A stretch of 64,000 bases of DNA, from NCBI GenBank assembly GCA_964016885.1, contig OZ024744.1, positions 60,202,001 through 60,266,000 of the forward strand, written 5' to 3'. The stretch comes from Eledone cirrhosa (lineage: Eukaryota). The stretch's first letter is position 1; every line of letters begins with the position of its first letter. This document shows, piece after piece, positions 13,125 through 61,958 of this stretch. Under the pieces are notes generated by a model. The model was not told the origin of the DNA. It did not search any database and saw only the letters and a list, made by a program, of their open reading frames with translations. Position numbers and translations under genes: made by a program.

Positions 13125-15090
13125 CTCTGAACGCAATTGTAGCACTCCCTAATAGGTTTATCCATGGCGCCCTGGACCCTCATACCTGAGGCCTCTTTTT
13201 TTCTGCCAGCCTGACTGTGGGCAATATCTACTGGAGGCTGGCTGCTAAGGTGGTCTGCAGGTCCATCACACCTGAACTGGGTGAGGAGCTAAGTCCGATG
13301 CAACTGGGTATCGGCGTGTCTGGTGGCAGTTCTTCAATAGCTGCCCACCGGAATTTGATCCAGGATCTCCAGGCAAGCTTGACATGAGGAATGCCTTCAA
13401 CTGCATACACCGTGACCATCTGCTTGATGCCTGCCTCAGCCGAGTCCCCTCTGCCTACACGCTGGCCTACCTGTCATATGGAACTCCGAGCATGTTGCTT
13501 GCTACTGATATGGTTATACCTTCAGCCACTGGGATCCAAAAGGGTGACTCTTTGGGCCCCCTCCTGTTTGCTCGGAGTATCATGGCCGTTCTCAACGTTT
13601 GGTATCTGGATGATGCTGCATTGGACAGGCCTGTAGAGACTGTCTGCAACAACCTACAATCAGTGGTTCCTGCTGTGCCAAGTTGGAGGTGGTGAATGTC
13701 AACCATGATGCTGAGAGCTCTTTACAGCCTCTGTCTCAGACATACAGTCAATTCTCCTTCAGGTACAGGTGACCACTAAAGAGGATGTCCTCATCCTTGG
13801 GTCACTGATCCACCTGCCGGCCATCCGTTCCACCATCAAGTCTCAGCTCCAGCAGTTCAAGACCCTTCAGGCCAACTGGACATGATTGATGATTACCCAG
13901 CCTTCTTCCTATTGAGGAACTGCTGTGCCATGCCAAAGTTCCACTATACTCTTCATAGCACTCCTTGCTACAGTCATGTATCTCTCCTTGCTGACCTTGA
14001 CACTTGTATCTGAGCGGCAGCTGAGGAGACATGCAGTATCAGGTTTGACAACATTGGATGGCAACAGGCCAACTTACCTGTTAGATATCGTGGCTTTGGC
14101 CTCCGGTCCCCAATCTTGCTGGCTTTGCCGGCGTTTCTTTCGTCGATAACCTCGTGCGCCATCCTTGTCAAAAAGGTTCCCCTAAACACAATGGAACCCA
14201 CTGTGATCGAGGAACATGAGGCCAACTGTGAGACATGGAACTGGTATGGACTTAGCCCAGTAGACGTCCCTCCTTTTTCTCTTCCTGCTGACGTCAAGTC
14301 CCCCCCCCCCCCCGAGTATTTGGGATACCATCCAGTGTACAACCTGGCCTCAGACAGGCTAGCACACCAGCTCTACCAGTATCGCCTTGCATGTTTTCAT
14401 GCAGCCTCGCAACCTCACAGCAGAGCCTAGTTCCATGCCTTACACACCTTCTCTACTGGTGGCACGCAACTGGACAATGATACCCTACACATCAGGGTTT
14501 CCCTGAGGCTTGGACTCCAGATCTGCAAGCCACACAAATGTCGCTGCTCATCCACCGTGGACTCTTTCGGCCTCCACCTGTTTTACTGTCGCTACAGTGC
14601 TGGCTGCCTTCCATGCCATGCTGCTCTCAACGAGGTCATAAAGCATGGCTTGGATGCTGCAGGCTTCTCCTCCCAGCTCGAGCCAGTGGGGCTGCACCAA
14701 GGGGATGGCAAAAGGCCAGACAGCATGACCATCTTCCCTTCCGCGGTGGTAAACCCCTCATCTGGGATACCACATGCAGCAACACTTTCTCCAACGGCAA
14801 CCTGGTGCAGTCTGCGACTAACCCAGGTTCTGCTGCACTTTGGGCTGAGGAGGGTAAACTCTCCAAGTATCGGTCGCTCTCCGACAGCTTTGCAATTGAG
14901 CTCCAAGCAGCAGAGACTCTAGTGTCCTTGGCCCTAGGGCTACCTCCCTACTCACCACCATAAGTGCTGAGCTGACTAGCTGCTGCTGTGTGCCTCGCAA
15001 GATGGAATGGCTCTTCCAGCACATCTCCCTTACCATCCTCCAGGGAAACGCCTTCTCCATTCTGTCTGCCGGGACCATGGGGCGGCCAGC
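13125..15090 (+). mobile_element. CRE-like non-LTR retrotransposon (RT plus restriction-like endonuclease), degraded
   Basis: KLDMRNAFN, GIQKGD.LGPLLF, WYLDD, CRC..VDSFGLH..C, HAALNEVI, GKRPD, WDTTC; paralog of 46198-48570. Confidence 0.88.
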
Positions 15091-15400: not shown

Positions 15401-15403
15401 ATA

Positions 15404-16779: not shown

Positions 16780-19700
16780 CATGAGTGTAGGCACATTGAA
16801 AGGTCGCTCAAACGAGGTTGTAGAGATGCTTGAACATAAGGAAGTCGATGTCTGTTGTGTTCAACAGACCAGGTGGAGGGGTGGGTCTGTTAGATTCATT
16901 GTGGGCAGGAAACAATGCTATAACCTTTTCTGGATGGGATGTGATAGCAGGTTGGGTGGTGCTGGAATTATGTTAACAGAAAAATGTGTAGACAAGTTAA
17001 TTGCCATAGATAGAGTGAATGATAGGATCATTAAAATAAGATTAGTACTAAATAGGACAACTGTATCTATTATATCTGCTTATGCACCCCAATCAGGATT
17101 ACCAGACGTTACTAAAGACAGGTTCTATGAGTCTCTAATGCTCACTACCTCCCAGATACCCACAGTGACTATATAATTATTGCTGGCGACCTTAATGGTC
17201 ATGTTGGACAACATTGTGATGGCTATGATGGAGTCAATGAAGATTATGGGTTTGTTACTTGAAATGAGGAAGGCTTCAGGATCCTGGAATTCTGTGATGC
17301 AAATGACCTGACTGTCTGTAACACAAACTTCAAAAAACGTGAGTCATTTGATCCCGTATAGATGAGGGGAGCACACCAGCCAGATAGACTTTATCCTTAC
17401 TAGGGAACGAGACAAAGTGCCTGTGTTGAACAGCGAAGAATGCGCCTCCCAACACAATTTAATAGTTAGTGACCTCATACTCAGGGCCAGATGTAATTGC
17501 CAGCAGAAGAACGCCTTAAGGAGAAGATTATGGAAGTTGAAGCGCCCAGCAGCAAGTAACAAATTCAAAGGCATATTACTCGATGCTTTTGATAGTAAGG
17601 AAGAGCAATTAGAGACATACAATATAGAGGAATAGTGGGATTCCTGAAAGTTAACCTGTTGAAGGCGACTGATGAAATCTGTGGCTGGAGCAGACCATTA
17701 GGCAGGAGGAGTGTGACATGGTAGTGGAACAGTAAGGTGGAGGAGTCAATCAAGGGCAAAAAGCAGGCTTGGAAAGAATGGCAGGATGGGTGTAGTAGAG
17801 AACTCTAGCTAGGAGAGAAGCTAGACAACAAGTATACCTTGCAAAGAGGGAAGCAGAGGATAGTAAGTTGAAGCATATTCTACAACGCGAGGTCCAAAGA
17901 CGTGAGGTGTTCAGGATTGTGAGGCAATGTCTCAAGGAGGATTGTGATATTGTCGGGGAGACGTGTATCTGTAATGACAATGTTATACTTGCCCTCACTG
18001 ATAGTGATAAAAAGGTAGCTTGGAAGTGTCACTATGAGAGAGTACTGAATGTGGAGAATGAATGTAGTAAAGATAGTCTACCCCACATCAATACAATAAA
18101 AGGACCAGCTGTGCAAGTTAATGGTTATGTAGTAAGTAAGGTAATCAAAAATATGAAGACAGGCAAGGCAGCTGGGCCTTCGGGGAGGTAGTTGCTGAAA
18201 TGTTGAAGGTATCTGGAATGGTGGGGCATACTATGGTCTCCCGGATAGTAAACCAAGTAATACAGAATGGGGTCATACCAAATGACTGGCATAGCAGCAG
18301 CATTGTCAACTGTTAAAGGAGACGCCCTGGATAGAAGAAACTATGGGGGTATTAAATCAAAGTCACAGAAAGAGTTATTACTCAACTGATTAGAGACCAA
18401 ATTGATCTAGAAGAAATGCAGTTTGGGTTTGTGCCAGGTAAAAGTACCACGGATTCTCTTTTCCTTGTATGGCAATTACAGAAGTACCTAGCTAACAGTA
18501 AACCCCTCTACTTAGCTTTTGTTGACATGGAGAAGGCCTTTGACAGAGTCCCATGCACCTTACTCTAGTGGGCTCTTAGAAAACTAGGAGTGGAAGAATG
18601 GCTCTTGAGAGCTGTACAAGCCATGTATAGAGGAACAGTCAACAAGGTTAGAATTAACGAAGAATATAGTGATGAATTTAGCGTAATGGTAGGGGTTCAC
18701 CAGGGTTCCGTTCTTAGCCCCCTCCTGTTTATTATTGTCCTACAGGCTATAACAGAGGGGTTTAAGACTGGCTGCCTATGGGAACTTCTATATGCAGATG
18801 ATCTAACTCTCATGGCTGAATCTATGGCTGAACTAGAGAGGAAGTTCCAAACATGGAAGCATGGCCTTGAATCAAAAGGCCTTAGAGTCAACTTGTCTAA
18901 GACTAAGGTTCTAGTATGTAGAAAGGAGTATAGGGCACAGGTACCCTCTGGTAAATGGCCATGCTCAGTGTGTAAGAAAGGAGTAGGTAGAAACTCCTTC
19001 TATGTCCCAAATGCAAACTACGGGTACATACAAGATGTAGTGGGATCAGAGGTAAGCTATCTAAGAACGTAGATTTTATATGTGGCCGATGCTCAGGTGC
19101 AGTAAGTAGCAAGGATCCACTGGATGATATCTCCTTCAACTGCCCAGATGGTTCTATAGAAATAGTAGACACCTTCCGTTACCTGGGTGACAAAATCATC
19201 AGTGGAGGAGGGTGCTCTGAAACTAGTAGCCAGAGTTAGAACAGGATGGAAAAAGTTCAGAGAGCTAATACCGCTGTTGACCACAAGGGTTTTTCTCTAA
19301 AAATGAAAGGCAAATTGTATGATGCTTGTATACGAGTGGCGATATTACATGGTAGTGAGACCTGGGCATTGTGTGCTGAAGACTTGTGTAGATTAGAAAG
19401 AAATGAAGCTTGCATGCTCCGATGGATGTGTAATAGTAATGTGTGCAAATGGCAAAGCATAAACAAATTGAGAGAGAGACTAAGCATAAGAGGTAAGAGG
19501 TATCAAATGTTGTGTTCTGAGAGGAGATTGCGTTGGTATGGACATGTGATGCGTATGAAGGATGACAGCTGTATAAAAAAGTGCAGGGCAATGAAAATTG
19601 ATGGAAGCTACGGAGTGGGTAGACCAAGAAAAACCTGGGACAAGGTGATAAAAATGACCTTGCTCACTTACACCTCTCTAAGACAATGACACTGGATTGA

Positions 19701-23199: not shown

Positions 23200-26160
23200 A
23201 CTAGTGGAAGGAGGAATGTAAATGAAGGCGCTGTGCAATTGTTGCCAAGGAGCTGGAATTTATCAAAGTTGATATCTCCAACAAAGTCCAATATCTAAAG
23301 AATGCTGCGCAATATATAACATTCGAAGGAAATGGAATTCGTATCAACACCCCCACCAGAAATAAGGGCTGCGACCCTAAAGAAAACTCGTTTTTATAGA
23401 ACTGTTTGTATAAAATCGAGAAAACCTGTTTCTTTGCCTCAGCATACATAGAAGGTATATTAAAGGAGGCAATGCCAGACATTTCCTACTTTCAGAGGGC
23501 CAAGCAGTATGGGAGCATCTTGGTGCTTTTCAAAAGTGAGGCCCTTGCTCAAAAATATTTGGTGGCTCCAATTAAGATGAGCCAATACATCTTTTCCCCT
23601 ACATACATGGGAAGAAGAATACACAAGATAAGGGTGTCCCAGATCCCACCGAACACCAACATTTGATGGATCCTGGGTGGCCTTTTGGAGGAGGGTGAAG
23701 ACACCCTCCTCTCTGTAAAGAAATCAACCAAGTAAAACTGCAATGGGACCTTGGTGGAACTCCTGGTTCAAATGAAACCAGAAAGAATTTCGAAAATACC
23801 TGAAAGAGTACCTGTTGATAATAGCCATGTTATCAACATCACAGTGGAGGGCAGAAACCACAGTGTTTTTGATGTGGAAAGGATACCCATATAAAAGCAT
23901 TCTGCCCAATGCTAAGGATACCCATATAAAAGCATTCTGCCCAATGCTAAGGATACCCATATAAAAGCATTCTGCCCAATGCTAAGGATACCCATATAAA
24001 AGCATTCTGCCCAATGCTAAGGATACCCATATAAAAGCATTCTGCCCAATGCTAAGGATACCCATATAAAAGCATTCTGCCCAATGCTAAAGACACAAAA
24101 ACAGAACAAGGTGTTGCTACTAACACCCAAACCTCAACAGCAACACCCAAAAACAAAGAACACAACCCAAAAAACAATAAAAACCATCAACATCCACTCC
24201 ACCATCACAAACCCAAAAAAACACCACACCAAAAATTCCCCTGAAAGACTCTATCTTACCCCTTCCCCCTCTGTCTAACACTCCCACAAACATTCCACCA
24301 CCACACAATATACTCCTCCCACATACTCCTGATGATAACACCTCAGATACAACAACCACCTCATCCCCGAGCGAGGGTGAAGAGGAGCCCCCCCCCCCCC
24401 CCAAGCAGTAGAACGCGCCTTTTTCAAAACTAGTAAAGAGTTGCAGCCTGGACGTTGATAAGGGCAACAGCTCGTAACTCGCATTCCCACTGCTTTGATT
24501 TTTCTTTCCAACATGGAGAGTAGTTAGATAGACAGCCTTTCAATGATTTACCGTTTATCTGTCAACTTATTTTACCAAATATTCCAATCGCTTACGGATG
24601 AAACATTATTATCATTCCTACAATCAGCTTTGGAAATTTTACTAACTTTAATAGTGACAGTGATTAAGGATAAATTAGTGCCGGTCTCATTACATTTTGA
24701 GCCTACCTAAAAACATTTATTTCACTGACATCTTCACAAAGAAAACTTTGCTGCATACACTTTGTACATATTGTTCAAACAAATTAAAAATAAATTATTT
24801 TTGTATAAAAACTAAATTACACCTTCTGATATATTTTTTAACCATTGGAACACTTCTTCAACATCTCCATCTTCCTAAAGTAGCAATCTTGCTAAAGTGA
24901 TAATTCTTACTAAAGACCCCACCATCCAGACACAAAGAAAAACCTTCACCTCCAGGAATCAAACATCACACCTAAAACTCATACGAAATAAACCACAAAC
25001 GTACATTTTCCTAAAAGAAAATTTTCCACATGACGTGGGAACCTCATGCCAAAAACCCCTCGAGTTATTAAAATGTGTGCTACCATACCAAACACCACCA
25101 TCACCAACATAGAGATTGAACAACCCGACCTCCAGGAAACAAAAAGGTAAGTGTTCCTTTTTCTCTTCTTCACCAGCATGGTGACTGTACAACTTAAATG
25201 TTTAAATGTGCATGGCCTGGGGGTGTCCTGGAAACAGGGCCAACTCCTAAATGACCTCAGGTCACACTGTATAGATGTGATAGCCATCAGTGAGCCCACG
25301 ATCCATGACAAGCAGCAGCTAACCCCCATGTTCAATGACTTTGAGATCTATGCATCCCCTTGTCAGCCAGGAGGTAAAGGAGGAGTTGCTGTGCTGTTTC
25401 GGAAAAACCTGTATCTCGAAATACAGACAATCTTCTTGAACCCAGGGGCCAAGTTGGTGGTCCTAGATGTAAACAGCAGCAAAAGTGGAGCTTTCAGACT
25501 GGTGACCGTCTATGTCCTGACTGAGACAATGTGGCAAGAGTTCTTTAGATGTCTGGAAGGCTTTCCTGGGAACATCTTGCTTTTTATTGTTAGCGAGGGA
25601 TTGGAATGGCATCTTGGACGCACGTCCCAATGTGTAGGGGCATGTGATAGTAGAGGAGGGTGTAAGAGCTTCAAAAATCTAATCAGCCAATTCCAATTTC
25701 CTGATAGATATAAACTAGATTTCCCAAATGCACCACTGGGTCTTCTAGTTCGTACTTAGATAGGTTCTTAATTAGATCTATAGATAAGAACATAATTAGC
25801 TACCCACAAACTCAAATGTCATCTATTCAGTCCATAAGTTATTGACCTGCATAATCGACCTAGACAGTACTTACAAACCGGGACCTGGATACTGAGCATC
25901 TTTGCCAACACATAAAGCCTATAGCAATTTAGTTTGACGCCAGTTGACAGGGGTGATTGTCAACAACAGGTGGAGGTGTTCTCTCGAAAGAGCAATTAGA
26001 GTAGAAGCAGTTGTATTCAGTAAAGAAATAGCTTTAGAAAGAAATAAAATAGAGAGGGAATTAGTAGCCAATGTAGAAAAACTCTTAAGAGCAATAGTGC
26101 GAGAACAGCACTAGACCAGTTCGTCAATGTGAAACACAAAGGTTGCACTGTTAGAAGTAA
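23200..26160 (+). mobile_element. Tx1/L1-like LINE 5' half (ORF1 with CCHC knuckle, ORF2 APE), degraded
   Basis: CF*CGKDTHIKAFCP knuckle; LKCLNVHGL..LRSHCIDVIAISE, GGVAVLF, LVTVY at 25188-25760. Confidence 0.75.
23881..24090 (+). repeat. Perfect tandem repeat, 6 x 35 bp
   Basis: GGATACCCATATAAAAGCATTCTGCCCAATGCTAA at 23881, 23916, 23951, 23986, 24021 and 24056. Confidence 0.97.
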
Positions 26161-40080: not shown

Positions 40081-40767
40081 TATTATATTTATATTTTTAA
40101 CTGTTGGTTAATTAATGGTAAACATTGATTACCAGCTAAATTATTTATAAAAATATAATGAAGTGAAAACCAAACCAAACAGTGAGTGTGTTTTACTATT
40201 TGTTTGGCAATATTAGGACAACATGACCCTCCCCAAATATAACAATATATTACTAATTAGCTTACTAATTACAAAGAAACAATAATTACATCATGTTGTG
40301 CTAGCCAATCAGGCAACATTTTGAACATCTAATAAAACTATATAAACTTATATGAATTGCCAAAATATTACTTTTAGAATAAAGTTTAATTTCACTATGG
40401 TTTCTTTTTTATTTCACATAACTGGAAATATTTAGAATGGCAGTCAAAATGATCTGGGAAATGTCATTAAATTTTAAATAGGCCATGCAATAAGATTTAC
40501 GTTGGAATAACATGCAAAGGAACTGCATGTCATCAAAGAATGGAAAAATATTAAAATAGATTTTTGTAAGGAGACATTTTTCAAGAACTGTTACTGCTTT
40601 GACCTTGGCATCTATCAGATACAAAAGAGAACATACCTTTCTAAATAGTGAGATAAATTTGCACTTTAGTAATAGACATCACATTAGATGAAAAAATATT
40701 ACAAGAATTGAAAATGTTCCTTGAAAGGCAAAAATACCCTGCTAACCTTATTAGTACAGTTATTATC

Positions 40768-43700
40768 TGTGGGACTGTGTGGAGGAGGTGACGTCAGATG
40801 TGGACACTTGACCGGAGGCAGAGGAGGAGTGAGGCGAGATGCGTTTCTGGGGCGACGTCCGTAGGCTGGGGCTATACGTTTCCGAGGCGGCGTCTGTAGG
40901 CTGCGTCCATGTGTTTCCAAGGTGGCGTCCGTAAGGCATCTCTCGTGGCGACTTGGAGCAAGACAGACGTACCGGATTAAGCTGCAGCTTGGCGACTTGA
41001 TTATAACGATGAAGATTGATGCCCGGCTTGGAGTGAACTAGCAGTGGAATAGCTTTCTCACCACAAACTATTTCGGCACATGAAGAAGTACAATTGAAAA
41101 AAAAAAAAAAAAAAAGCAGGGACAAAGACTATCTTGTTTTATCACTTACCGCGACCTTACCGCAGGACTAAAGAGATGGCGACGAGATTACGGTTGAGCG
41201 GTGAAGTACTTAAAGCTTTTACCAGTGAAGGAGACATTATCGCTTGGGTGTGAAAGGTTCGGGTGGTCGCCGAGCTACAAAAGATAGACGATGTGGCCGG
41301 TCTCATGGCACTATATCTCGAGGGGGATGCGCTAGCATTATATCTCGAGATGGACGAAATCAGCCAGAGGGACATGCACAAAATTGAACGGCGTATGATG
41401 GAAGCGTTTGCGGAAGGTCCGTGTACCGCGTTTGCCAAGCTGGCAAGGTCAACGTATGGATATTTTTGCTGCGGAGATAAGGAGATTGGCCATGCTGGCT
41501 GGGTTTCAGGTCGAGTGCAAGTGTGCAGTACGGCTGGCATTTATAAACGGATTTCCGGATGACATCGCGGTGAGACTGAAGCAAATACCTGGCTACAAGG
41601 AAATGGAGATGCGTACATTGGTAGAGCAAGCCCACATCATAGCGGAAGATGCTAAGAAGAGTGTTGCGGCAATAGCGGCGATGGAGGCCCAGGCACCGAC
41701 AGCGAAATTCCGAAAGGACGACAAACACGGCGAAGAGTCGCCCACACACGTTTAGGGGTCATTGTTATAGGTGCCAGGGTGCACACATGGCGAGAGATTG
41801 TAAGGAGTCGACACCAGACATAATTTGCTACCGGTGTAGGCGGCCAGGCCACATCGCTACCAATTGCAACCAGGGAAACGGTCCAAGGGGAGTTATTACG
41901 CCGGTAGCTAACCCTCGAGTGTAGAGGCGCTGCCTGTGGTGAAAGTCCTGGTGAAGGGAAAGCCATTACGAGCCCTCGTGGACACAGGATGTACAACGAC
42001 ACTGGTGACTACGGGGGTGGTGGAAAAGTGGAGAGGGAAGAGCATCATAAGGGCAGTCGGCGGTAGGAAGATTGAAGGTAGAGGTTGCAGTGAGGTGGAG
42101 ATTGTGGTAAGGGGAAAGAGAATTAGGCTTTCAGCCATTGTGGTCGACTGCGTAGTGGATGGAATTGACCTGGTTATGGGCATGGAAGCGATTGGCCGAT
42201 TAGGAGGCGTGACAGTGAACGATGTCGGAGTAACATTTGGTGGCGCTGCACCAGCATGCGTTGTGTGTACGCATCAGGAGAGCGAGAAGGCCCACGAGGA
42301 AAAATATGCCGCTCATACCGTACAGGATAAGGACTTCAAGGCCGTGTTCGACGGGCAGCGATGGGTTGTTGAGTGGTACTGGAAGGGAGAACCCCCAACA
42401 CTGAAGAACAAAGTGGGCTCCTATCAGCACACACTGAAAGGAGATACTAGGAGAGAGTTTGAGTGAGAGGTAGAGAGATGGATCGAGGAGGGCATACTGG
42501 TTCCCTGGAAGGAGGAGGTGAAGTGTGGGGTGCTGTTGTTAATGGCTGTGGTGCAACCCATGAAGAACAAGGTGAGACCAGTGTTGGATTTTCGGGAGCT
42601 GAACGAGCATCTGTCGTGTCAGACGGGTGGTGAGGTCACGGATGTCTGCGGGGAAACTCTGCGCGAGTGGAGACGTATGACGAGGGCTTCCATGATCGTC
42701 GACTTAAAGTCGGCATATCTACAGCTACGTGGAGAAGCTGTGGCAGTATCAGCTGGTCAGGTATGAGGGCCGGACATATTGCCTGACCAGGCTCGGTTTC
42801 GGGTTGAACTCTGCACCGAAGATCATGGCGGCGGTCCTCAAGACCGTTCTGGGAAAGACTGACAAGATGAAGAGGGTCACCAATTCCTACATCGACGACA
42901 TCTTAGTGGACGAGACTATAGTGTTGGCGGCGGAGGTTACGGATTGACTGCGAAGCCGTCAGAGGCGTTGGAGGGAGGAGCCGCACTAGGACTTAGGCTG
43001 TGAAAAGACAAGACGGGCACGTTGGAATTTCGGAGGAGAAATGAAGTCCCGGAACTAGGCCCAAACATGAATAAACGGGAACTCTTCTCGGTGTGTGGAA
43101 AATTGATAGGTCACTACCCAATCGCTGGGTGGTTCTGGGCGGCATGCAGCTATGTCAAGAGACGAGCGGACGGGGTTACTTGGAGTGACAAGGTGGGAGA
43201 GAGGATGATGGCCATGATACAGGAGATCGTGGGGAGGGTGAAACCGATGACTCGGTGCAAGGACGCTGGTATGTCCCTGAATCGCAGAGCGGGACCGTAT
43301 GATGCGATGCCAGTAGCATAGCGCTGGGTGTCACGTTGGAGATAGGAGGTGTTGAGGTCGAGGATGCAGCCTGGCTCAGGAATAAAGATGATTGTAACCA
43401 CATCAATGTGGCCGAACTGGACGCGGTGTTGAGAGGGGTGAACCTCACCCTGAAGTGGGGACTGCGCACCATCGAGATACGCACCGACTCGGCTACTGTA
43501 CTCAGATGGGTGAGGTCAGTGCTCACCAGTGAGAAGAGAGTGCGAAGGAGAGGGGCGGCAGAAATGCTGATAAAGCGCCGCATGGGAACTTTAGGAGAGC
43601 TGGCCACCGAGTCCGACCTGAGGCTGAGCTTAGTCTTCGTGCCCTCAGAGAAAAATAGGGCGGACGTTTTAACCAGGGTGAAGAAAGCCTAGATGGAAGC

Positions 43701-44535
43701 GCCGGAGGATGCAGAAGAGGGGATAGTCGCTGTGTGTCGGCTGAGCGAGTAGGACCTTAAAGGGTTGCATGCCATGCACCACATGGGAGTGAATAGGACC
43801 CTGTTCCTAGCCAGGAGAATCGATTCCGACGTTCGCAGAGACAGTGTCCAGAGAGTGGTCAGAGGCTGCGTCCGATGCCAGTCTATTGATCCCGCTCTGG
43901 GTGTGCACGAGTCAGGAAGTCTCCTGGTGGATCGCGACTGGAAATAATTGGCGGTGGATGGAACACACTACCGACAGGGAACATACCTCTCAATGGTTGA
44001 TTGTGGACGATATGAAGGGAAATGAAGATGGGAACTGCGGAGGAAATCACGCAGACGTTGAGAGAGATATTCTTGGAGCGGGGCCCTGTGGATGAACTGC
44101 TGATGGATAATAGCGCTGTGTTCCGCTCGGAGGCGCAGAGGGAAATGCTTGATGGATGGAAGGTGGACCGCTTCTTCAGAGCAGCATACAGGCCGAGCGG
44201 ATGGCGGATTATCACATGCAGCAGAGTGAGGAGGAGATTGATCCTTGAGATCAGGGGGGCACGTGTGGGGCTGTGTGGAGGAGGTGATGTCAGATGTGGA
44301 CGCTTGACCGGAGGCGGAGGAGTGAGGCGAGATGCGTTTCTGGGGCGACGTCCGTAGGCTGCATCCATGTGTTTCCGAGGTGGCGTCCGTAAGGCATCTC
44401 TCACGGCGACTTGGAGCAAGACGGACGTACCGGATTAAGCTGCAGCTTGGCGACTTGATTATAACGACGAAGATTGATGCCTGTTTTGGAGTGAACCAGC
44501 AGACTCGCGGTAAGTGGAATAGCTTTCTCACCACA
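40768..44535 (+). mobile_element. LTR retrotransposon A (atypical lineage), both LTRs present, 5-bp TSD TTATC
   Basis: LTRs 40768-41065 and 44264-44535 (TGT..ACA); PPT-like AGATCAGGGGGG; gag with 2 CCHC, ALVDTGC, VLDFRELN, YIDDILV, HINVAELD, HHCC finger, partial integrase (LLMDN). Confidence 0.96.
41066..41077 (+). promoter_or_regulatory. Non-canonical PBS candidate AACTATTTCGGC
   Basis: Abuts the LTR; 11/12 complementary to tRNA-Phe nt 1-12; conserved with 57197-57208. Confidence 0.7.
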
Positions 44536-45299
44536 TTATCGAGGCAAAAAATATTCTGATTACAGAACTCAGAAGAAAACAAATATAAGAAAATGGACAA
44601 ATATTTCATTTGTTACTACTCATAATCCAAAGAACTAGAATATTTTGACTACCACTAAAAGCTTTCCCCTGATTTCTCAACAGTCCCCTAAAATGAATAA
44701 ACTACTGACTGAATCACAGATAATCAACATGAGATGCCAAATACCCAATTTAAAGAAACTCTTAACCAAAGCAAGGTTTATATCAGAAAGGGTTGAAAAA
44801 TGTGTTGATCCTCATTGTATGACATGTGAGTATGACATGTGAGTATGACATGTGAGTATATTGAATAGATTACTTTTAAACTGGCAAAACATTTTAAATT
44901 TATGCAAGTATGAATTGCAAATTTCTACTTGTCCACAATGCAAGGGAAATTATATCAAGCAAACTGGACAGGATTATAAGTGTATGTAAATAAGTGTAAA
45001 GAACAAAACATACAGTGAACACTTTGAAGGTGTTAAAAATGAAAATTTTAAATATTTTTTCAAGTTATGGAAAGAAACTGACTATTTTGAAAGTGTAAAG
45101 AATATTATTTTATTAAAAAATGTAAACCCCAAAAGAATAGAAAATAATATTTGAGCAACCAGAAATACCATCAAACCGATTTCAATGTCCTTTGACAATG
45201 TTAACAATATGCTGACTGAAAAACAGTAAGAGTTCTTGAATCATAATGGAATAGAATGTCATTGAAAATGTGTCATTCTAATTATTTTCAGGTTCCAAA

Positions 45300-46197: not shown

Positions 46198-48570
46198 TTT
46201 TTTTTTTTTTAATCATAAACTGTTGTCACATTTTCAAAAATAATACGCGATAGGGCCCCACCCACAGCCCCGGCAGGCAGAATGGAGAAGGCGTTTCCCC
46301 GGAGGACAGCAAGGGAGACGCGCTGGAAAAGCCACTCCAATTCACAGGGCTCACACCTGCAGCTGGCCAGCTCAGTGCCTATGGTGGTGAGTAAGGAGGC
46401 AGCCCTGGGGCCGAGGACACCAGAAGTCTCCACTGCCAGGGGTCCGACCACAAACCTGTCGAAGAGCGACCGGTATTTGAGGAGTTTGGCCCCCTCAGCC
46501 TGACGTGCAGCAGAACCTGGGTCAGTCGCAGACTGCACCGGGTTGCGGCTGCAGAAAATGTCGGTGCAAGTGGCATCCCAGACAAGGTGTTTGCCACCGC
46601 AGAACAGGAAGATGGTCATGCCATCTGGCCTTTTACCATCCGCTCGATCCAGCCCCACCGACTCGAGCTGGGAAGGGAAGCCTGCAGCCTCCAAGCCATG
46701 CTTAATGACCTTGTTGAAGGCAGAATGGCGTGGAATGCGGCAACAGGAAAGCGGGTGGAGGCCGAAAGAGTCCACGGTGGAACCGCAGCGACATTGGTGT
46801 GGCTGGCAGATCCAGAAGCCAAGCCTCAGGGAAACACTGTTGCGCAGGCTATGGTTGTCTAGCTGCGTGCCAGTGGAGAAGGAGGGAAGGGCATGGCGCC
46901 AGGCACCACTGTAGGGTTTGGAGGCTGCACGAAAACAAGCAAGGTGGTGCTGGTCGAGCTGGCGCGTGAGCCTGTCTGAGGCCAGGCTGCACTGGATGGC
47001 ATCCCAAGTGCGTTGAGGGGGGGGACTTGACGTCAACAGGGGAGAAGGAGGAGGGATGTCTACTGGGCTAAGTCCCAGCCGGTCCCACATCTCACAGGCG
47101 GCCTCACGTTCTCTGAACACAGAGGGTTCTGTTGTGTTTTGAAGAACCCTGCTGACGAGGACGCAGCACAAGGTAACTTAGTGGAGAATGGACCGCACGT
47201 CTGAGACGGAGTCTGCAAAGCTCTCAGCATCGAGGCTGACATTCACCACCTCTGACTTGGCCAAGTTGACCTGGAGGCCGATTCCCGCCAGGGCAGGAAC
47301 CACCGATTTAAGGTCATGGCAGACAGTCCGTACGGGCCCGCCAAAGGTAGCATCATCCAGATACCAAACGTTGAGAGGGGCCATGATACTCTGGTCAATG
47401 CCAAGGGTCACCCAGTTGGACCTCAGTAGCCGAAGGTATGACCGTATCAGCAGCAAGGAGCATGCTCAGGGCTCCATATGGCAGGTAGGCCAGTGGGTAG
47501 GCAGAGGGGGCTAGGCTGAAGTAGGCCTCGAGCAGATGATCCCGGCGTAAAGAGTTGAAGGCATTCCTCATGTCAAGCTTGACAATGAGGTGCCTGGAGT
47601 CCCTGGGTGCCGGTTCCGATGGGCAGCTGTTGAAGAACTGCCTGGTTGCATAAGCGGCCCCCTCACAGCCACCGGACATGCCGACACCCAGTTACACTGG
47701 ACTAAACTCCTCACCCAGTTCGTGAGTTACGGACTTGCAGATCACCTTGGCAGCCAGCCTCCGGAAGACATTGCCAACAGCGATGGGGCGTATGCCACCC
47801 TCTTTTTTCCTGAGAGCGGTGAGGCTGGCCGAAAAAAAGAGGCCTCGGGCGTGAGGGTCCAGGGTGCCATGGATGAGCCTATTGGTGAGCGCCACAATTA
47901 CACTCAGAAGGCGGCGCCCGGCCTCAGCGGAGAGGGGGGATATCAACTCCTTGAGGTGGCCTGGGCGGAGACCATCAACACCTCCGCAGCTGCTAGCTGA
48001 GAAGGACCTGATGGCGGACATGATGTCTGCATCAGAAGCCACAAGGAGCAAGTGGGGGTCGGGTGTGGGTATGGGTCTCAGATCAGTGGGTGACTCAGGG
48101 TGTTTGAGTTGCAGAGCAGCCAGGACTTCCTCGGTGGGTTGGAGGACAGTGTCCTCTGAGGCAACAACTCTGACTGCAGCCGAGACAGCACCCATGATAA
48201 GCTTGGCGATTACCTGGTCACGCAAACGCTTGGCGCTGGCCTCAGGGGTGGAGGATAGGGGGTACCTGAGGGTGGGGTGTGTGGCGTCCCTGGGCACGCT
48301 TGGAATGGGCGCTTGCCCAAAGGACGAGACATTGGCCTTGATGAAGGCTGCTGTTGACAGGCCGCCCCGGTCAGTGCCAGAGCTGGGGAGGCCGAGGGCG
48401 AGTGGCATGAAATAAAACAGCCGCTCCCAGTCATTGGCTCGATTGGAGTCCAGGGCACTCTCAATCGAGAAAGTGAGGGCATCGGCTACCGGCACCCGGG
48501 CTGCTCTCGGGATCCTGAGTGGGATCTTCTGGAGCCGCCTGAGCCAAGCGATGTTGACCAGCGAGGCTTG
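46198..48570 (-). mobile_element. CRE-like non-LTR retrotransposon, best-preserved copy, with poly(A) tail
   Basis: KKEGGIRPIAVGNVFRRLAAK, KLDMRNAFNSLRRD, WYLDD, CRCG..DSFGLH..C, PRHSAFN, DGKRPDG, WDATC, K..KY; T13 at 46198-46210. Confidence 0.95.
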
Positions 48571-56805: not shown

Positions 56806-57196
56806 AGTGAATTATGAATTGTGAAATGTATAAGACTTCTAGTTAGAAAATCCGTTACAATTCGTTGTCACGTTCGTAATTATGACATTGTCCCTCCCTC
56901 CCCCATTTTGTATGCTGATGTAAAATATGTGGGTATGGTGTGGCGTGCGGTGGCCGGAGGCGGGGGAGCGCTCGACTGGAAGGGTGCTTGGCCGGAAGGG
57001 CCAGCAGAGGGTGCTCTCTAGTGGTGCCTAGCAACGGTGTGAACGCCAGTTTGTGCAGTGCCTAGCAACGGTGTGAACGCCAGTTTGTGCAGCTCCCGGT
57101 GTTAAGCAGTTGGACGCAGGAGGACGAGGAGTAACCAGCAGTGGAGTTAGCGGCGCCTATGAAAAGCGGTAAGTGAGATAGCTTTTTCTAACCACA

Positions 57197-57208
57197 AGCT
57201 ATTTCGGC
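57197..57208 (+). promoter_or_regulatory. Non-canonical PBS candidate AGCTATTTCGGC
   Basis: Abuts the LTR; exact complement of GCCGAAAUAGCU (tRNA-Phe nt 1-12, recalled sequence). Confidence 0.75.
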
Positions 57209-57313
57209 CACTGGAAACAGATCTGATTGAAAAAAAAAGAAAAAAGCTACTGGAAAAACAGAGAGGAGTCTGTTGTTTTTTTTTTTATCACGTACCGCAA
57301 GACAAATCAGAAG

Positions 57314-58075
57314 ATGGCGACAAGACTACGAACAAGCGAAGCTATCAGGGCATTTACCGGGGAAGGTGATGTTGTCGCTTGGCTGCGGAAAGTTCAGCTG
57401 GTCGCAAGCTTGCAGAAGATAGATGTGGCGGCTGGCCTCATGGCACTGTACCTCGAGGGGGGCGCGTTGGTACTCTTCCTTGAGTTGGACGAACACAGCC
57501 AAAGAGATGCGCAAAAGATTGAGAGGCATCTGATAGATGCATTCGCCGAGGGACCGTTGGCCGCTTTTGCTAAGCTGGCGAGAATTAGATGGAATGGTGA
57601 GCGCGTCGACATTTTCGCAGCAGAAATACGGCGATTGGCTATGTTGGCTGGATATCAGGTGGAATGCGAATGCACGGTGCGGTTGGCGTTAATAACTGGA
57701 TTTCCAGACGACATAGCGGTGAAACTGCAGCAAGTCCCTGGTTATAAAGAAATGGAAATGCGTTCGCTGGTGGAACAAGCCCGGATCATAGCGGAAGATG
57801 CCAAAAAGAGTGTTGCGGCGATAGCAACTACAGAGGCTCAAGACAGCTGGCAGCGAAATGGTGAAAGGGAGGCAACCACGGCACGCGGTCGCCCACGAAC
57901 GTTTAGAGGTCGCTGTTTTCGGTGCCAGGGCCCGCACATGGCTAGAGACTGCAGAGAGTCAAGGCCGGAAATAACATGCTACCGGTGTAAGCGACCAGGC
58001 CACATCGCTACTAACTGCGACCAGGGAAACGATCCAAGGGGAACTACTGCGCCGGTAGTTGCCCCTTACGAGTAG
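57314..58075 (+). CDS. gag: Gag with two CCHC zinc knuckles
   Basis: Open frame from MATRLR; CFRCQGPHMARDC and CYRCKRPGHIATNC. Confidence 0.85.
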   Translation: MATRLRTSEAIRAFTGEGDVVAWLRKVQLVASLQKIDVAAGLMALYLEGGALVLFLELDEHSQRDAQKIERHLIDAFAEGPLAAFAKLARIRWNGERVDIFAAEIRRLAMLAGYQVECECTVRLALITGFPDDIAVKLQQVPGYKEMEMRSLVEQARIIAEDAKKSVAAIATTEAQDSWQRNGEREATTARGRPRTFRGRCFRCQGPHMARDCRESRPEITCYRCKRPGHIATNCDQGNDPRGTTAPVVAPYE

Positions 58076-58081
58076 CGGCGC
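58024..58081 (+). promoter_or_regulatory. -1 ribosomal frameshift signal (G GGA AAC plus hairpin/pseudoknot)
   Basis: In-frame slippery heptamer, 5-nt spacer, stem AAGGGGAACTAC/GTAGTTGCCCCTT; pol is in the open -1 frame; conserved at 41873. Confidence 0.8.
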
Positions 58082-60070
58082 TGCCCGTGGTGGAAGTCTT
58101 CGTGAGGGGAAAGCCACAGCGCGCCCTCGTAGACACGGGCTGTACGACGACACTGGTGACCGCGGGGGTGGCGCAGAGGTGGAGAGGGAAGAGCAGCGTA
58201 AGGGCAGTCGACGGCAGGAAAATTGAATGCCGAGGTCGCAGCGAGATGGAAATAGCGGTACGGGGAAGGAAAATAAGGCTTTCTGCCATCGTAGTAGACA
58301 GCGTGGTGGATGGGATCGGCGTGGTTATGGGCATGGACGCAATTGGCCGTCTAGGAGGCGTCACAGTGAACAACATCGGTGTGTCGTTTGGCGCCGCTGC
58401 ATCGGTATGCGCTGTGAGTGCACGACAGGAGAACCAGAATGCCCACGAGGAGAAATACCCCGCTTACACTGTGCAGGACAAAGACTTCAAGGCCGTGTTC
58501 GATGGGCAGCGATGGGTTGTTGAGTGGTACTGGAAGGGAGAACCACCGACACTGAAGACCAAAGTGGGCTGCTATAAACACACATTGAAGGGAAACATTA
58601 GGAGCGAGTTCGAGCGAGAGGTAGAGAGATGGATTGAAGAGGGCATACTGCTTCCCTGGAAGGAGGAGGTGAAGTGCGGAGTATTGGCGTTAATGGCGGT
58701 GGTGCAACCCACGAAGAACAAGGTGAGGCCGGTGCTGGATTTTCGGGAGCTGAACGAGCACGTGTCATGCCACACGGGTGCCGAGGTCACGGATGTCTGT
58801 GGGGGAAACCCTGCGTTAGTGGAGACGCATGACGGGGGGTTCAGCAATCGTAGATCTAAAGTCGGCATACTTGCAATTGCATATAGACGAGAAGCTCTGG
58901 TAGTATCAGCTGGTCAGGTATAAGGGCCGGACATATTGCCTGACCAGGCTCGGTTTCGGGCTGAGCTCCGTACCGAAGATCATGGCGGCGGTCCTCAAGA
59001 CCATTCTGGGAAAGGCCGACAAGATGAAGAGGGCTACTAACTCCTATATTGACGACATCCTAGTGGACGAGTCTGTGGTGTCGGCGGCGGAGGTCACAAG
59101 CCATTTACAGGGGTATGGACTGGCTGCGAAGCCGCCAGAAGCATTGGAGGCAGGAGCCGCGCTGGGACTTAGGCTACGGCGAGACAGGACGGGCGTCTTG
59201 GTATTCCAGAGGGGAAACGAAGTTCCAGAACTGGGCCCAAGTATAAGTAGGCGGGAGCTTTTCTCGGTGTGTGGAAAGCTGGTGGGTCACTACCCGATCG
59301 CTGGGTGGCTCCGGACGGCATGCAGCTATGTCAAGAGACGAGCGGGAGGAGTGACTTGGAGTGACAGAGTGGGAGAGAGGACGGTGGCCATGATGCAGGA
59401 GATCGTGGGGAGGATGAAGGCCGACGACCCAGTGCGGGGACGCTGGTATGTTCCCAAATCACAGAGCGGGACCGTATGGTGCGATGCCAACAGCATAGCG
59501 CTGGGTGTCACGTTGGAGATAGGAGGTGTTGAGGTCGAGGATGCACCCTGGCTTAGGAAGAAGAACGACTACAACCACATCAATGTGGCCTAACTGGACG
59601 CAGTGTTGAGAGAGGTGAACCTCGCCCTGAGGTGGGGGCTGCGCACCATCGAGATACGCACCGACTCGGCTACTGTACTCGGATGGGTAAGATCGGTGCT
59701 CACCAGTGAGAAGAGAGTGCGAACGAGAGGGGCGGCGGAGATGCTGATAAAGCGCCGCCTGGGAACTTTAGGAGAACTGGCCACCGAGTTCGACCTGAGG
59801 CTGAGCGTAGTTTTCGTGCCCTCAGAGAAAAATAGGGCAGACATCTTCATTAGGGTGAAGAAAGCCTGGATGGAAGCGCCGGAGGATGTAGAAGAGGAGA
59901 TAGCTGCCGTGTGTCGGCTGACCGAGTCGGATCTGAAAGGGTTGCATGACATGCACCACATGGGGGTGGATAGGAGCCTGTTCCTAGCCAGGAGAATCGA
60001 CTCGGACGTTAACAGACACAGTGTTCAAAGGGTGGTTAGAGGCTGCGTCCCATGTCAGTCCATTGATCCC
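58081..60070 (+). pseudogene. pol: Pol (PR-RT-RNase H-HHCC), disrupted
   Basis: ALVDTGC, VLDFRELN, YCLTRLGFGL, YIDDILV, WCDA.SIALG, HINVA, TDSATV, HDMHHMG..CVPC. Confidence 0.92.
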
Positions 60071-60609
60071 ATTGATCGCAAAGAAGTCGTAAACCACCAA
60101 CCTGGACAGCAGACTTTCATATGCAGAGGGACGAAGGGGAAATTGGTCCTTGAGATCAGGGGGGCGTGTGGATATGGTGTGGCGTGCGGTGGCCGGAGGC
60201 GGGGGAGCGCTCGACCGGAAGGCTGCTTGGCCGGAAGGGACAGCAGAGGGTGCTCTCTATTGGTGCCTAGCAACGGTGTGAACGCCAGTTTGTGCAGTGC
60301 CTAGCAACGGTGTGTGAACGCCAGTTTGTGCAGCTCCCGGTGTTAAGCAGTTGGACGCAGGCGGACGAGGAGTAACCTACATTGGAGTTAGCGGCGCCTA
60401 TGAAAGGCGGTAAGTGAGATAGCTTTTTCTAACCACAAAATATACTTCTAGCTGTTGGGCGATTCTGTAATGTAGAAATTTCAATCATTCTTCCTGTCTG
60501 TAAATCCATTCAGAAGTAAGTACTCCCGTTAGAAAATAAGTTATGCCTGCCTTTTATTTGTTTTTCCAGTATCTCCCAGGTTGGCTACGCACGTCTGCCT
60601 TCCGGAAGA

Positions 60610-61958
60610 AATGCTTGAACGTAAGGAAGTTGATGTTTGTTGAGTTCAAGTGACCAGGTGGGCAGGTGGGTCTGCTAGATTAATTATGGGCAAGAAACGA
60701 TGCTATAAGCTTTTCTGGATGGGATGTGATAGCGGGCTGGGTGGTGGTGGAATTATGTTAGAGTGAATGACAGGATCATTAAAATAAGATTAGTACTAAA
60801 TAGGACAACTGTATCAATTATCTCTGCTTATGCACCCTAATCTGGATTACCAGACGCTATTAAAGACAGGTTCTATGAGTCGCTAATGCTCACTACCTCC
60901 CAGATACCCACAGTGACTATATAATTATTGCTAGCGACCTTAATGGTCATGTTGGACAACATTGTGATGGAGTCAATGAAGGTTATGGGTTTGGTACTAG
61001 AAAAGAGGAAGGCTTCAGGATCCTGGAATTCTGTGATGCAAATGACCTGACTGTCTGTAACACAAACTTCAAAAAACGTGAGTCATATGATAACTTATAG
61101 ATCAGGGGAACACACCAGCCAGATAGACATTATCCTTACTAAGTCCCTCCCTCGCAAAGAATGCACCTCAACATAACTTAATAGTTAGTGACCTCATACT
61201 CAGGGCCAGACGTACTTGCCGGCAGAGGAATACATTAAGGAGAAGATTATGGAAGTTGAAGAACCCCACAACCAGTAACAAATTTAAAAGCATATTACTC
61301 GATGCTTTTGATAGTAAGGAAGAGCAATTAGAGACATACAATATAGAGGAACAGTGGGAATTCCTGAAAGTTAACCTGTTGAAGGCGACTAATGGAATCT
61401 GTGGCTGGAGCAGACCATTAGGCAGGAGGAGAGTGACATGGTGGTGAAACAGTATGGTGGAGGAGTCAATCAAGGGCAAAAAGCAGGTGTGGAAAGAATG
61501 GGTAGCGAGGAGAGAAGCTAGACAAGTATACAAAGAGGGAAGCAGAGGATAGTAAGTTGAAGCATATTCTACAACGCGAGGTCCAAAGACGTGAGGTGTT
61601 CAGGATTGTGAGGCAGTGTGTCAAGGAGGATTGTGATATTGTCGGGGGCGACGTGTGTCTGTAATGACAATGGTATACTTGCCCTCACTGATAGTGATAA
61701 AAAGGTAGCTTGGAAGTGTCACTATGAGAGAGTACTGAATGTGGAGAATGAATGTAATAAAGATAGTCTGCCCCACATCAATACAATAGAAGGACCAGCT
61801 GTGTAAGTTTATGGTAGTATAGTAAGTAAGGCAATCAGAGATGTGAAGAGAGGCAAGGCAGCTGGGCCATCAGGGAGGTAGTTGCTGAAATGTTGAAGGT
61901 ATCTAGAATGGTAAGACATACTATGGTCACCCGGATAGTAGACCAAGTAATACAGAAT
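60610..61958 (+). mobile_element. RTE LINE fragment, close relative of 16825-18270
   Basis: Colinear high similarity over the APE and linker. Confidence 0.9.

Follow-up and report, generated by a model that had tools for sequence, protein, structure and literature searches.

Two related LTR retrotransposons lie in the window

The window, by which we mean the whole 64,000-nucleotide stretch of DNA analysed here, carries two LTR retrotransposons, both on the + strand: element A (40768–44535) and element B (56928–60437). Their features are as follows.

40763..40767, +, left 5-bp target-site duplication of element A (TTATC)
40768..41065, +, 5' LTR of element A, 298 nt, TG...CA
41046..41054, +, U5 look-alike of tRNA-Phe nt 4–12 in element A, whose sequence allows pairing with the primer site; a feature local to A/B-type families
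41066..41077, +, primer-binding site of element A, complementary to tRNA-Phe(GAA) nt 1–12 at 11 of 12 positions, with a private change at position 2
41177..44245, +, gag-protease-RT-RNase H-integrase region of element A, with frameshifts and stops and the integrase cut short
44246..44263, +, polypurine tract and spacer of element A
44264..44535, +, 3' LTR of element A, 272 nt, TG...CA
44536..44540, +, right 5-bp target-site duplication of element A (TTATC)
56923..56927, +, left 5-bp target-site duplication of element B (AAATA)
56928..57196, +, 5' LTR of element B, 269 nt, TG...CA, 96% identical to its own 3' LTR
57166..57183, +, U5 of element B: an arm (57166–57175) for which folds predict pairing with the leader immediately 5' of the gag ATG, and the tRNA look-alike (57175–57183)
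57197..57208, +, primer-binding site of element B, complementary to tRNA-Phe(GAA) nt 1–12 at 12 of 12 positions
57314..58075, +, gag ORF of element B, with a zinc knuckle
58015..60150, +, pol of element B: protease, RT with YIDD, DUF7047, RNase H and a truncated integrase of which the start is present, spread over three ORF pieces
60151..60166, +, polypurine tract and spacer of element B
60167..60437, +, 3' LTR of element B, 271 nt, TG...CA
60438..60442, +, right target-site duplication of element B

Both elements have direct LTRs with TG...CA ends, 5-bp duplications and a polypurine tract, and gag, protease, RT and RNase H, together with integrase, were all found, which places them among the LTR retrotransposons (Ortervirales-type). 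The 5' LTR of element A lacks a short U5 stretch that is present in its own 3' LTR and in the family, and its coding region holds no + strand ORF of 200 aa. Over 2.8 kb of internal sequence, A and B have an identity of 81%. An earlier note, made from the sequence of the window, had described the two LTR bodies as not alignable except near their ends, and indeed only short patches are common to them, the best being the last 31 nt of U5 (84%).

In element A the 12-mer AACTATTTCGGC at 41066–41077 abuts the CA end of the 5' LTR with no spacer, and in element B AGCTATTTCGGC at 57197–57208 abuts the 5' LTR in the same way. The 12-mer therefore stands directly after both 5' LTRs, at the identical position that the note had given it, and the bases 3' of it diverge between the elements as quoted there. 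A search of the window for the 12-mer at up to one mismatch returned two matches, a number reached by 2 of 100 shuffled sequences; a search of 40500–41400 against Rfam gave no match. The two 12-mers, which the note had stated to be the same, differ at position 2. This change is private to A: among 29 other copies with A's gag start, 22 have B's exact 12-mer and none has A's change. Nor can the conservation between A and B be called independent or confined to the 12-mer, because the elements are related, with 81% internal identity, and share the end of U5. The view that conservation is focused on the 12-mer fails between A and B, where the last ~30 nt of U5 are also kept, but holds across more distant families.

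The site is complementary to the 5' end of host tRNA-Phe

The 12-mer is the reverse complement of nt 1–12, the 5' end and not the 3' end, of this genome's tRNA-Phe(GAA). Among tRNA genes reached by searching this genome (G000) for the reverse complement of the 12-mer, ARAGORN predicts a tRNA-Phe(GAA) beginning exactly at that complement in three loci (L031, L037 and L038) and in six genes of a fourth (L061). G000 has 250 tRNA-Phe-like starts; among the first 100 listed, 85 have the matching 5' end, and two further groups, of 12 and 3, differ at nt 4. On this evidence, an exact complement in B and the genes of the host itself, the note appears right in having read the 12-mer as a primer site complementary to tRNA-Phe. 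Locus L061 (G000:C4:117362000-117535000) is a tandem array of ~1.26-kb units, each with a tRNA-Phe and a tRNA-Asn; many of the units are altered.

Compared with tRNA-Phe, the site pairs with nt 1–12 only, at −18.7 kcal/mol for the 12 bases; nt 13 would meet the terminal A of the LTR in place of the G that it requires, and pairing therefore ends at nt 12. The orientation fits normal priming, with tRNA nt 12 facing U5. Over its last 7 bases the site repeats the sequence of the tRNA's 3' acceptor strand, the strand that would be displaced on invasion. Neither A nor B has a 3'-end-type site (TGG...) for tRNA-Phe, and no other primer site was found in them. As the site pairs with the 5' end of the tRNA, a primer acting here would have to come from a cut tRNA with a free 3'-OH at nt 12. 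Taken together, the sequence data argue that nt 1–12 of tRNA-Phe are probably the minus-strand primer of these retrotransposons.

The site is kept across copies in this genome

A pattern consisting of an LTR end plus the 12-mer gave 387 matches in G000 against 0 in the reversed control, and a second pattern of this kind gave 92 against 1 (479 against 1 for both). When 90 B-type copies were chosen by gag alone, the site was exact in 73, had one mismatch in 14 and two mismatches in 2, and was lost in 1. Within the B family it is modestly more constant than U5, with 18 mismatches in 89 × 12 positions against a median of 3 in 89 per U5 column. Of 30 G000 loci, 11 have an exact 12-mer ahead of a gag that shares 41–59% identity with that of B; in these loci the 50 nt upstream lack a U5 look-alike.

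The base after the site was recorded in 89 copies: none in 30, G in 46, C in 6, A in 4 and unclear in 3. On a gag tree of 86 copies it changes 5 times. This base is thus mostly inherited and does not show the run-off signature, a non-templated base at the 5' edge of the primer, that would be expected.

Relatives in other hosts carry the site at the LTR end

The pol of this lineage (protease, RT with YIDD, DUF7047, RNase H and integrase, ~950 aa) has hundreds of relatives, with 830 proteins reaching E ≤ 1e-8 in a single search. Those with names come from molluscs and crustaceans: Argonauta, Aplysia, Plakobranchus, Oratosquilla, Palaemon, Petrolisthes and Trinorchestia. No relative was found in IMG/VR. 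In metagenome contigs, 73 loci were recovered, 27–57% identical to P0001, of which 45 had a gag hit; removal of three without upstream room and two duplicates left 40 foreign loci. A site at up to two mismatches was present in the 500 nt before gag in 38 of these 40, compared with 1 of 40 on the antisense strand. Across the 37 loci tallied, the bases opposite tRNA nt 1, 3 and 7–12 are invariant, one change lies opposite nt 2 and all others fall at nt 4–6, the two-mismatch limit restricting how many changes a site can have but not where they fall. In the two of the 40 loci that exceed this limit (L174 and L186) three to four bases differ, and CA followed by a 12-mer of like frame is still present.

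In 36 of the 37 tallied loci the site follows CA directly, without a spacer after the LTR end. A second LTR end in L155 bears out the direct junction of site and LTR; elsewhere the boundary was read from the CA, because most contigs hold one collapsed LTR. A crude search for polypurine tracts in such collapsed contigs succeeded in 11 of 35 and was uninformative. The placement of the site bears on an alternative in which tRNA-Phe, or 5' fragments of it, would be bound there for some other purpose, such as packaging, the formation of RNA dimers or the control of translation, priming being achieved by another, unseen route. Many foreign elements have an ATG within a few bases 3' of the site, so that binding there could affect translation. 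The absence of a spacer, however, puts the site where the start of minus-strand synthesis is fixed, and neither A nor B offers an alternative primer site; we regard such a non-priming role as improbable.

Two other observations were made among these loci. L186 and L191 represent a family in which, ~115 nt before the gag hit, the site after CA differs at 4 of 12 positions, including the base opposite tRNA nt 12. The 5' end of another tRNA may be its primer source; elongator Met tRNA presumably fits at nt 8–12, and a search of the collected loci found nothing. In L133 (positions 55 and 4116) and L154 (1228 and 5251) the LTR end and primer site occur twice, ~4 kb apart, which suggests tandem elements with a common LTR.

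Site types and the tRNA-Phe of the host

The sites fall into five types. Three of the four foreign types equal the 5' ends of eukaryote-type tRNA-Phe(GAA) genes, which were found in unrelated records and are thus not host-matched (L252; L257 and L298; L267, L271 and L293). For the fourth, the TCCC type, no eukaryote-type tRNA-Phe was found, its 101 hits including 73 that are not tRNA, 15 Thr, 7 Ile and one bacterial-type Phe; all tRNAs among them are of prokaryote type. None of five records with variant tRNA-Phe genes contains an element of the lineage, weak hits in G004 being to other elements. L257–L261, L277 and L278 form an array of eukaryote-type tRNA-Phe genes at a spacing of 3.7 kb; the record that contains it is catalogued as a bacterial MAG, and contamination is likely.

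On an RT tree of 39 rows, in which the winA row is a partial segment whose long branch is an artefact, site type changes at least 7 times. It is also strongly clustered, no shuffle of 200 giving a value as low, so descent accounts for much of the pattern. Pairs of rows from the same record set have a common site type in 14 of 17 cases, against 88 of 308 for pairs from different sets (2 of 20000 shuffles); this comparison used 26 rows, with sets defined by name prefix and with TCTA rows and near-copies left out. Foreign-type junctions in G000 fall below the control (17 versus 38). As read from these sequences, the pattern of types fits a site that tracks the host tRNA, the match to the host itself being available for G000 only.

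The U5 look-alike is a local feature

The earlier note had proposed that U5 folds back onto the 12-mer, mimicking the tRNA, and could gate primer binding or support self-priming. The look-alikes at 41046–41054 (A) and 57175–57183 (B) allow U5 to pair with 9–10 of the 12 site bases, wobbles included. In B-type copies this duplex reaches −11.5 kcal/mol, with z-scores of −2.5 and −2.8 in L062 and L067, the two G000 copies covered by this measure. In foreign elements it is better than shuffled sequences (z below −2) in only 1 of 38. The fold-back thus stands for the A and B families and fails for their foreign relatives. The observation that would have counted against the note, a 12-mer varying while the hairpin stays, was not seen; it is the reverse that occurs, in the 11 G000 loci that keep an exact 12-mer without a look-alike. 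Judged by its distribution among these sequences, the U5 hairpin is a local feature of A/B-type families.

These data also bear on self-priming of the Tf1 kind, in which the transcript would start at the U5 look-alike and fold onto the 12-mer, and a cut would give the primer. The pairing of U5 with most of the site in A and B families, seen in predicted folds and in the z-scores above, is what such a mechanism would use. However, the pairing is absent in 37 of 38 foreign elements and in the 11 gag-bearing G000 loci, a self-complement of the site at up to two mismatches occurs upstream in 1 of 36 foreign elements (absent in 35), and the best self-complement in all four LTRs of the window has 4 mismatches. 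In addition, the three bases opposite tRNA nt 1–3 are nearly invariant although U5 leaves them unpaired, the strong-stop template in B would be only 13 nt long, and the U5 duplex is weaker than that with the tRNA (−11.5 versus −18.7 kcal/mol). We consider self-priming exceedingly improbable, and as an explanation for the lineage it is rejected on the near-absence of the U5 hairpin and of a self-complement in foreign elements. Gating of the site by the hairpin is possible in the A and B families only, as a family-level add-on at most.

Predicted folds place the U5 look-alike/site hairpin in competition with a copy in the leader, the whole enclosed by a U5–leader stem. The leader of B (57245–57255) and those of L109 and L093 have this second, partial copy of the first bases of the primer site; one large B subfamily is without it. 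Pairing of the look-alike with either the site or the leader copy, as predicted for L109, could possibly act as a switch. Several G000 families (B, at 57166–57175 and 57290–57313; L093, L079, L109, L201 and L221) also show a GGTAAG resembling a splice donor in U5, and a pyrimidine tract with AG just ahead of the gag ATG. The GGTAAG side and the gag-proximal side are themselves predicted to pair, as the U5–leader stem around the primer site. The pair of motifs may mark either an intron whose removal would take the primer site out of the mRNA or a stem that would mask the donor. Element A's 5' LTR has lost the donor-bearing stretch. Contigs of X1–X3, all from one sample of unrecorded kind, contain no junction spanning the leader; they are uninformative on RNA.

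A model for priming by a cut tRNA-Phe

We propose that the acceptor and D stems of tRNA-Phe are invaded by the element RNA, which displaces the 3' strand of the tRNA, and that a cut between nt 12 and 13 then provides a 3'-OH at nt 12. The position of the cut is deduced from geometry: the 3'-OH must be made at nt 12, because this nucleotide points into U5 and nt 13 cannot pair with the terminal A of the LTR. The element's RNase H would make this cut at the edge of the RNA duplex, by analogy with Tf1. In that element, according to the available text of PMC7175516, 11 bases pair and RNase H cuts between nt 11 and 12. Since an 11-base RNA duplex is cut in that manner, the element's own enzyme is favoured as the cutter; by this analogy we put the odds at about even. 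The primer would be extended from nt 12 into U5, and plus-strand synthesis would copy the primer to its 5' end and so re-make the site. Such copying would hold the length of the site at exactly 12 bases and allow the site to follow the host tRNA. In A and B families the U5 look-alike and the predicted U5–leader stems may hide or expose the site but would not be the primer. Taken furthest, the reading would be that a widespread, unnamed lineage of compact (~4 kb), DUF7047-bearing elements uses Tf1-type cleavage priming in trans on host tRNA-Phe, its own RNase H cutting off nt 1–12, and that the site tracks the tRNA-Phe of each host. We assign this tentative, wider reading a probability of roughly 0.4.

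A host nuclease could instead make the 5' tRNA-Phe fragment, by a cut in the D-loop and trimming to nt 12; this fragment would be packaged and would prime with no cleavage on the part of the element. All of the sequence evidence fits this equally well. The usual short 5' tRNA fragments are 14–16 nt, however, and one of that size would leave an unpaired 3' tail; pairing at the site stops exactly where the CA of the LTR forbids a pair with nt 13, as a cut at the edge of the duplex needs. 5' tRNA fragments are nonetheless a known class, as the accessible part of PMC7472051 states, and half-tRNA priming by copia-type elements, as presented in the parts of PMC6317226 and PMC10886601 available to us, indicates that cut tRNAs can prime. 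We hold a host-made fragment to be rather unlikely.

Retrons prime from a 2'-OH and form branched RNA–DNA. By analogy, an uncut tRNA could support synthesis from a 2'-OH near nt 12, which would be compatible with the sequences and would require no nuclease. Plus-strand copying of the site would then have to cross the branch, and the reviews of primer types, as far as their text was available, describe no LTR element of this kind. This alternative seems to us very unlikely.

Comparison with known elements

The order PR-RT-RH-IN in pol is that of Ty3/Gypsy (Metaviridae). Of the Pfam models, RVT_3, protease and zf-CCHC exceed their cut-offs, as does rve in two of four relatives, and RVT_1 and RNase_H fall short; the Pfam RNase H models that we take to be typical of Ty3/Gypsy had no hit in any of four proteins. 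The best PDB matches are retroviral integrases. Peptidase_A17, DUF1758, DUF1759 and DUF5641, which we take as markers of BEL/Pao (Belpaoviridae), were absent from the same four proteins at E up to 1. Ty1/copia elements carry integrase before RT in pol, unlike the present elements, in which it follows RT and RNase H.

Troyka elements and Kuafuorterviruses are likewise LTR elements of aquatic animals with gag-PR-RT-RH-IN that stand outside the well-known clades, on the available text of PMC12440569 and PMC11673190. As described there, Troyka has CG..CG ends, 3-bp duplications and IADD, VADD or LADD in RT, in contrast to TG..CA, 5 bp and YIDD here, and identity with Troyka/Kuafuortervirus was rejected on these three characters.

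With Tf1/Tf2 of Schizosaccharomyces pombe (Tf1/sushi) the present elements have in common a short 5'-terminal RNA segment, 11 nt there and 12 nt here, that pairs beside the 5' LTR and must be cut at the edge of the duplex (parts of PMC7175516 and PMC6317226). In Tf1, however, the element supplies this segment from its own RNA; in the present case host tRNA takes that place, and the LTR of the element itself has no complement. Complementarity of at least 10 nt to the own 5' LTR, by which the accessible text of PMC6317226 recognizes Tf1/sushi self-priming, was not found. RNase H cutting is reported for Tf1 in the text seen and is deduced here.

Half-tRNA priming, known from Drosophila copia, yeast Ty5, plant Osser, Bryco, Gymco-II and Bianca, and fungal Copia and Helenus, also uses a 3'-truncated host tRNA (PMC6317226 and PMC10886601, both in part). 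In these Ty1/copia elements the partner of the site is an anticodon stem-loop, that of tRNA-iMet, Ile, Tyr or Asp, unlike tRNA-Phe nt 1–12 here; the portion of PMC10886601 at hand reports anticodon-loop priming by several tRNAs in fungi. Among elements primed by the 3' end of a tRNA, the users of tRNA-Phe, such as mouse IAP (available part of PMC7472051), resemble the present ones in relying on host tRNA-Phe and in having the site beside the 5' LTR. Unlike the present site, theirs open with TGG and are complementary to the CCA end, and 3' tRNA fragments would accordingly not be complementary to a 5'-end-type site. The lineage is thus Tf1-like in geometry and copia-like in its probable use of a cut tRNA, and a member of neither.

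Significance of a proposed 5'-end primer

A survey of 13,863 plant elements recognizes three primer types, namely whole tRNA, half tRNA and self-primer (PMC6317226, in the part available). The accessible portions of PMC7472051, PMC13524379 and PMC12859917 deal with 3'-end priming only or contain nothing on 5'-end tRNA sites, and that of PMC7175516 mentions a proposed novel priming for Cryptococcus Tcn2-5. In the literature searched we found no description of a 5'-end tRNA-Phe primer site or of DUF7047; Repbase Reports, most subscription journals and preprint supplements lay outside its scope, and a prior note there is quite possible. If the proposal is true, a 5'-end tRNA primer would be a fourth type and a bridge between tRNA priming and Tf1-type cleavage priming, making the origin of one from the other testable, and 5' tRNA fragments would gain a direct role in retroelement replication. 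Such elements would then escape the mammalian defence by 3' fragments described in the available part of PMC7472051, yet would be exact targets of 5' fragments. Pipelines that seek tRNA 3' ends only, as PMC13524379 does on the text available, would score the lineage as being without a primer site.

Other features of the window

On the − strand at 2457–2548, ARAGORN predicts a tRNA-Cys of 92 nt, likely a pseudogene or part of a SINE. A perfect 35-bp tandem repeat occupies 23844–24123. Further repeat pairs lie at 15403 and 53194, at 17011–18254 and 60759–61944, and, in inverted orientation, at 13215–15081 and 46261–47780.
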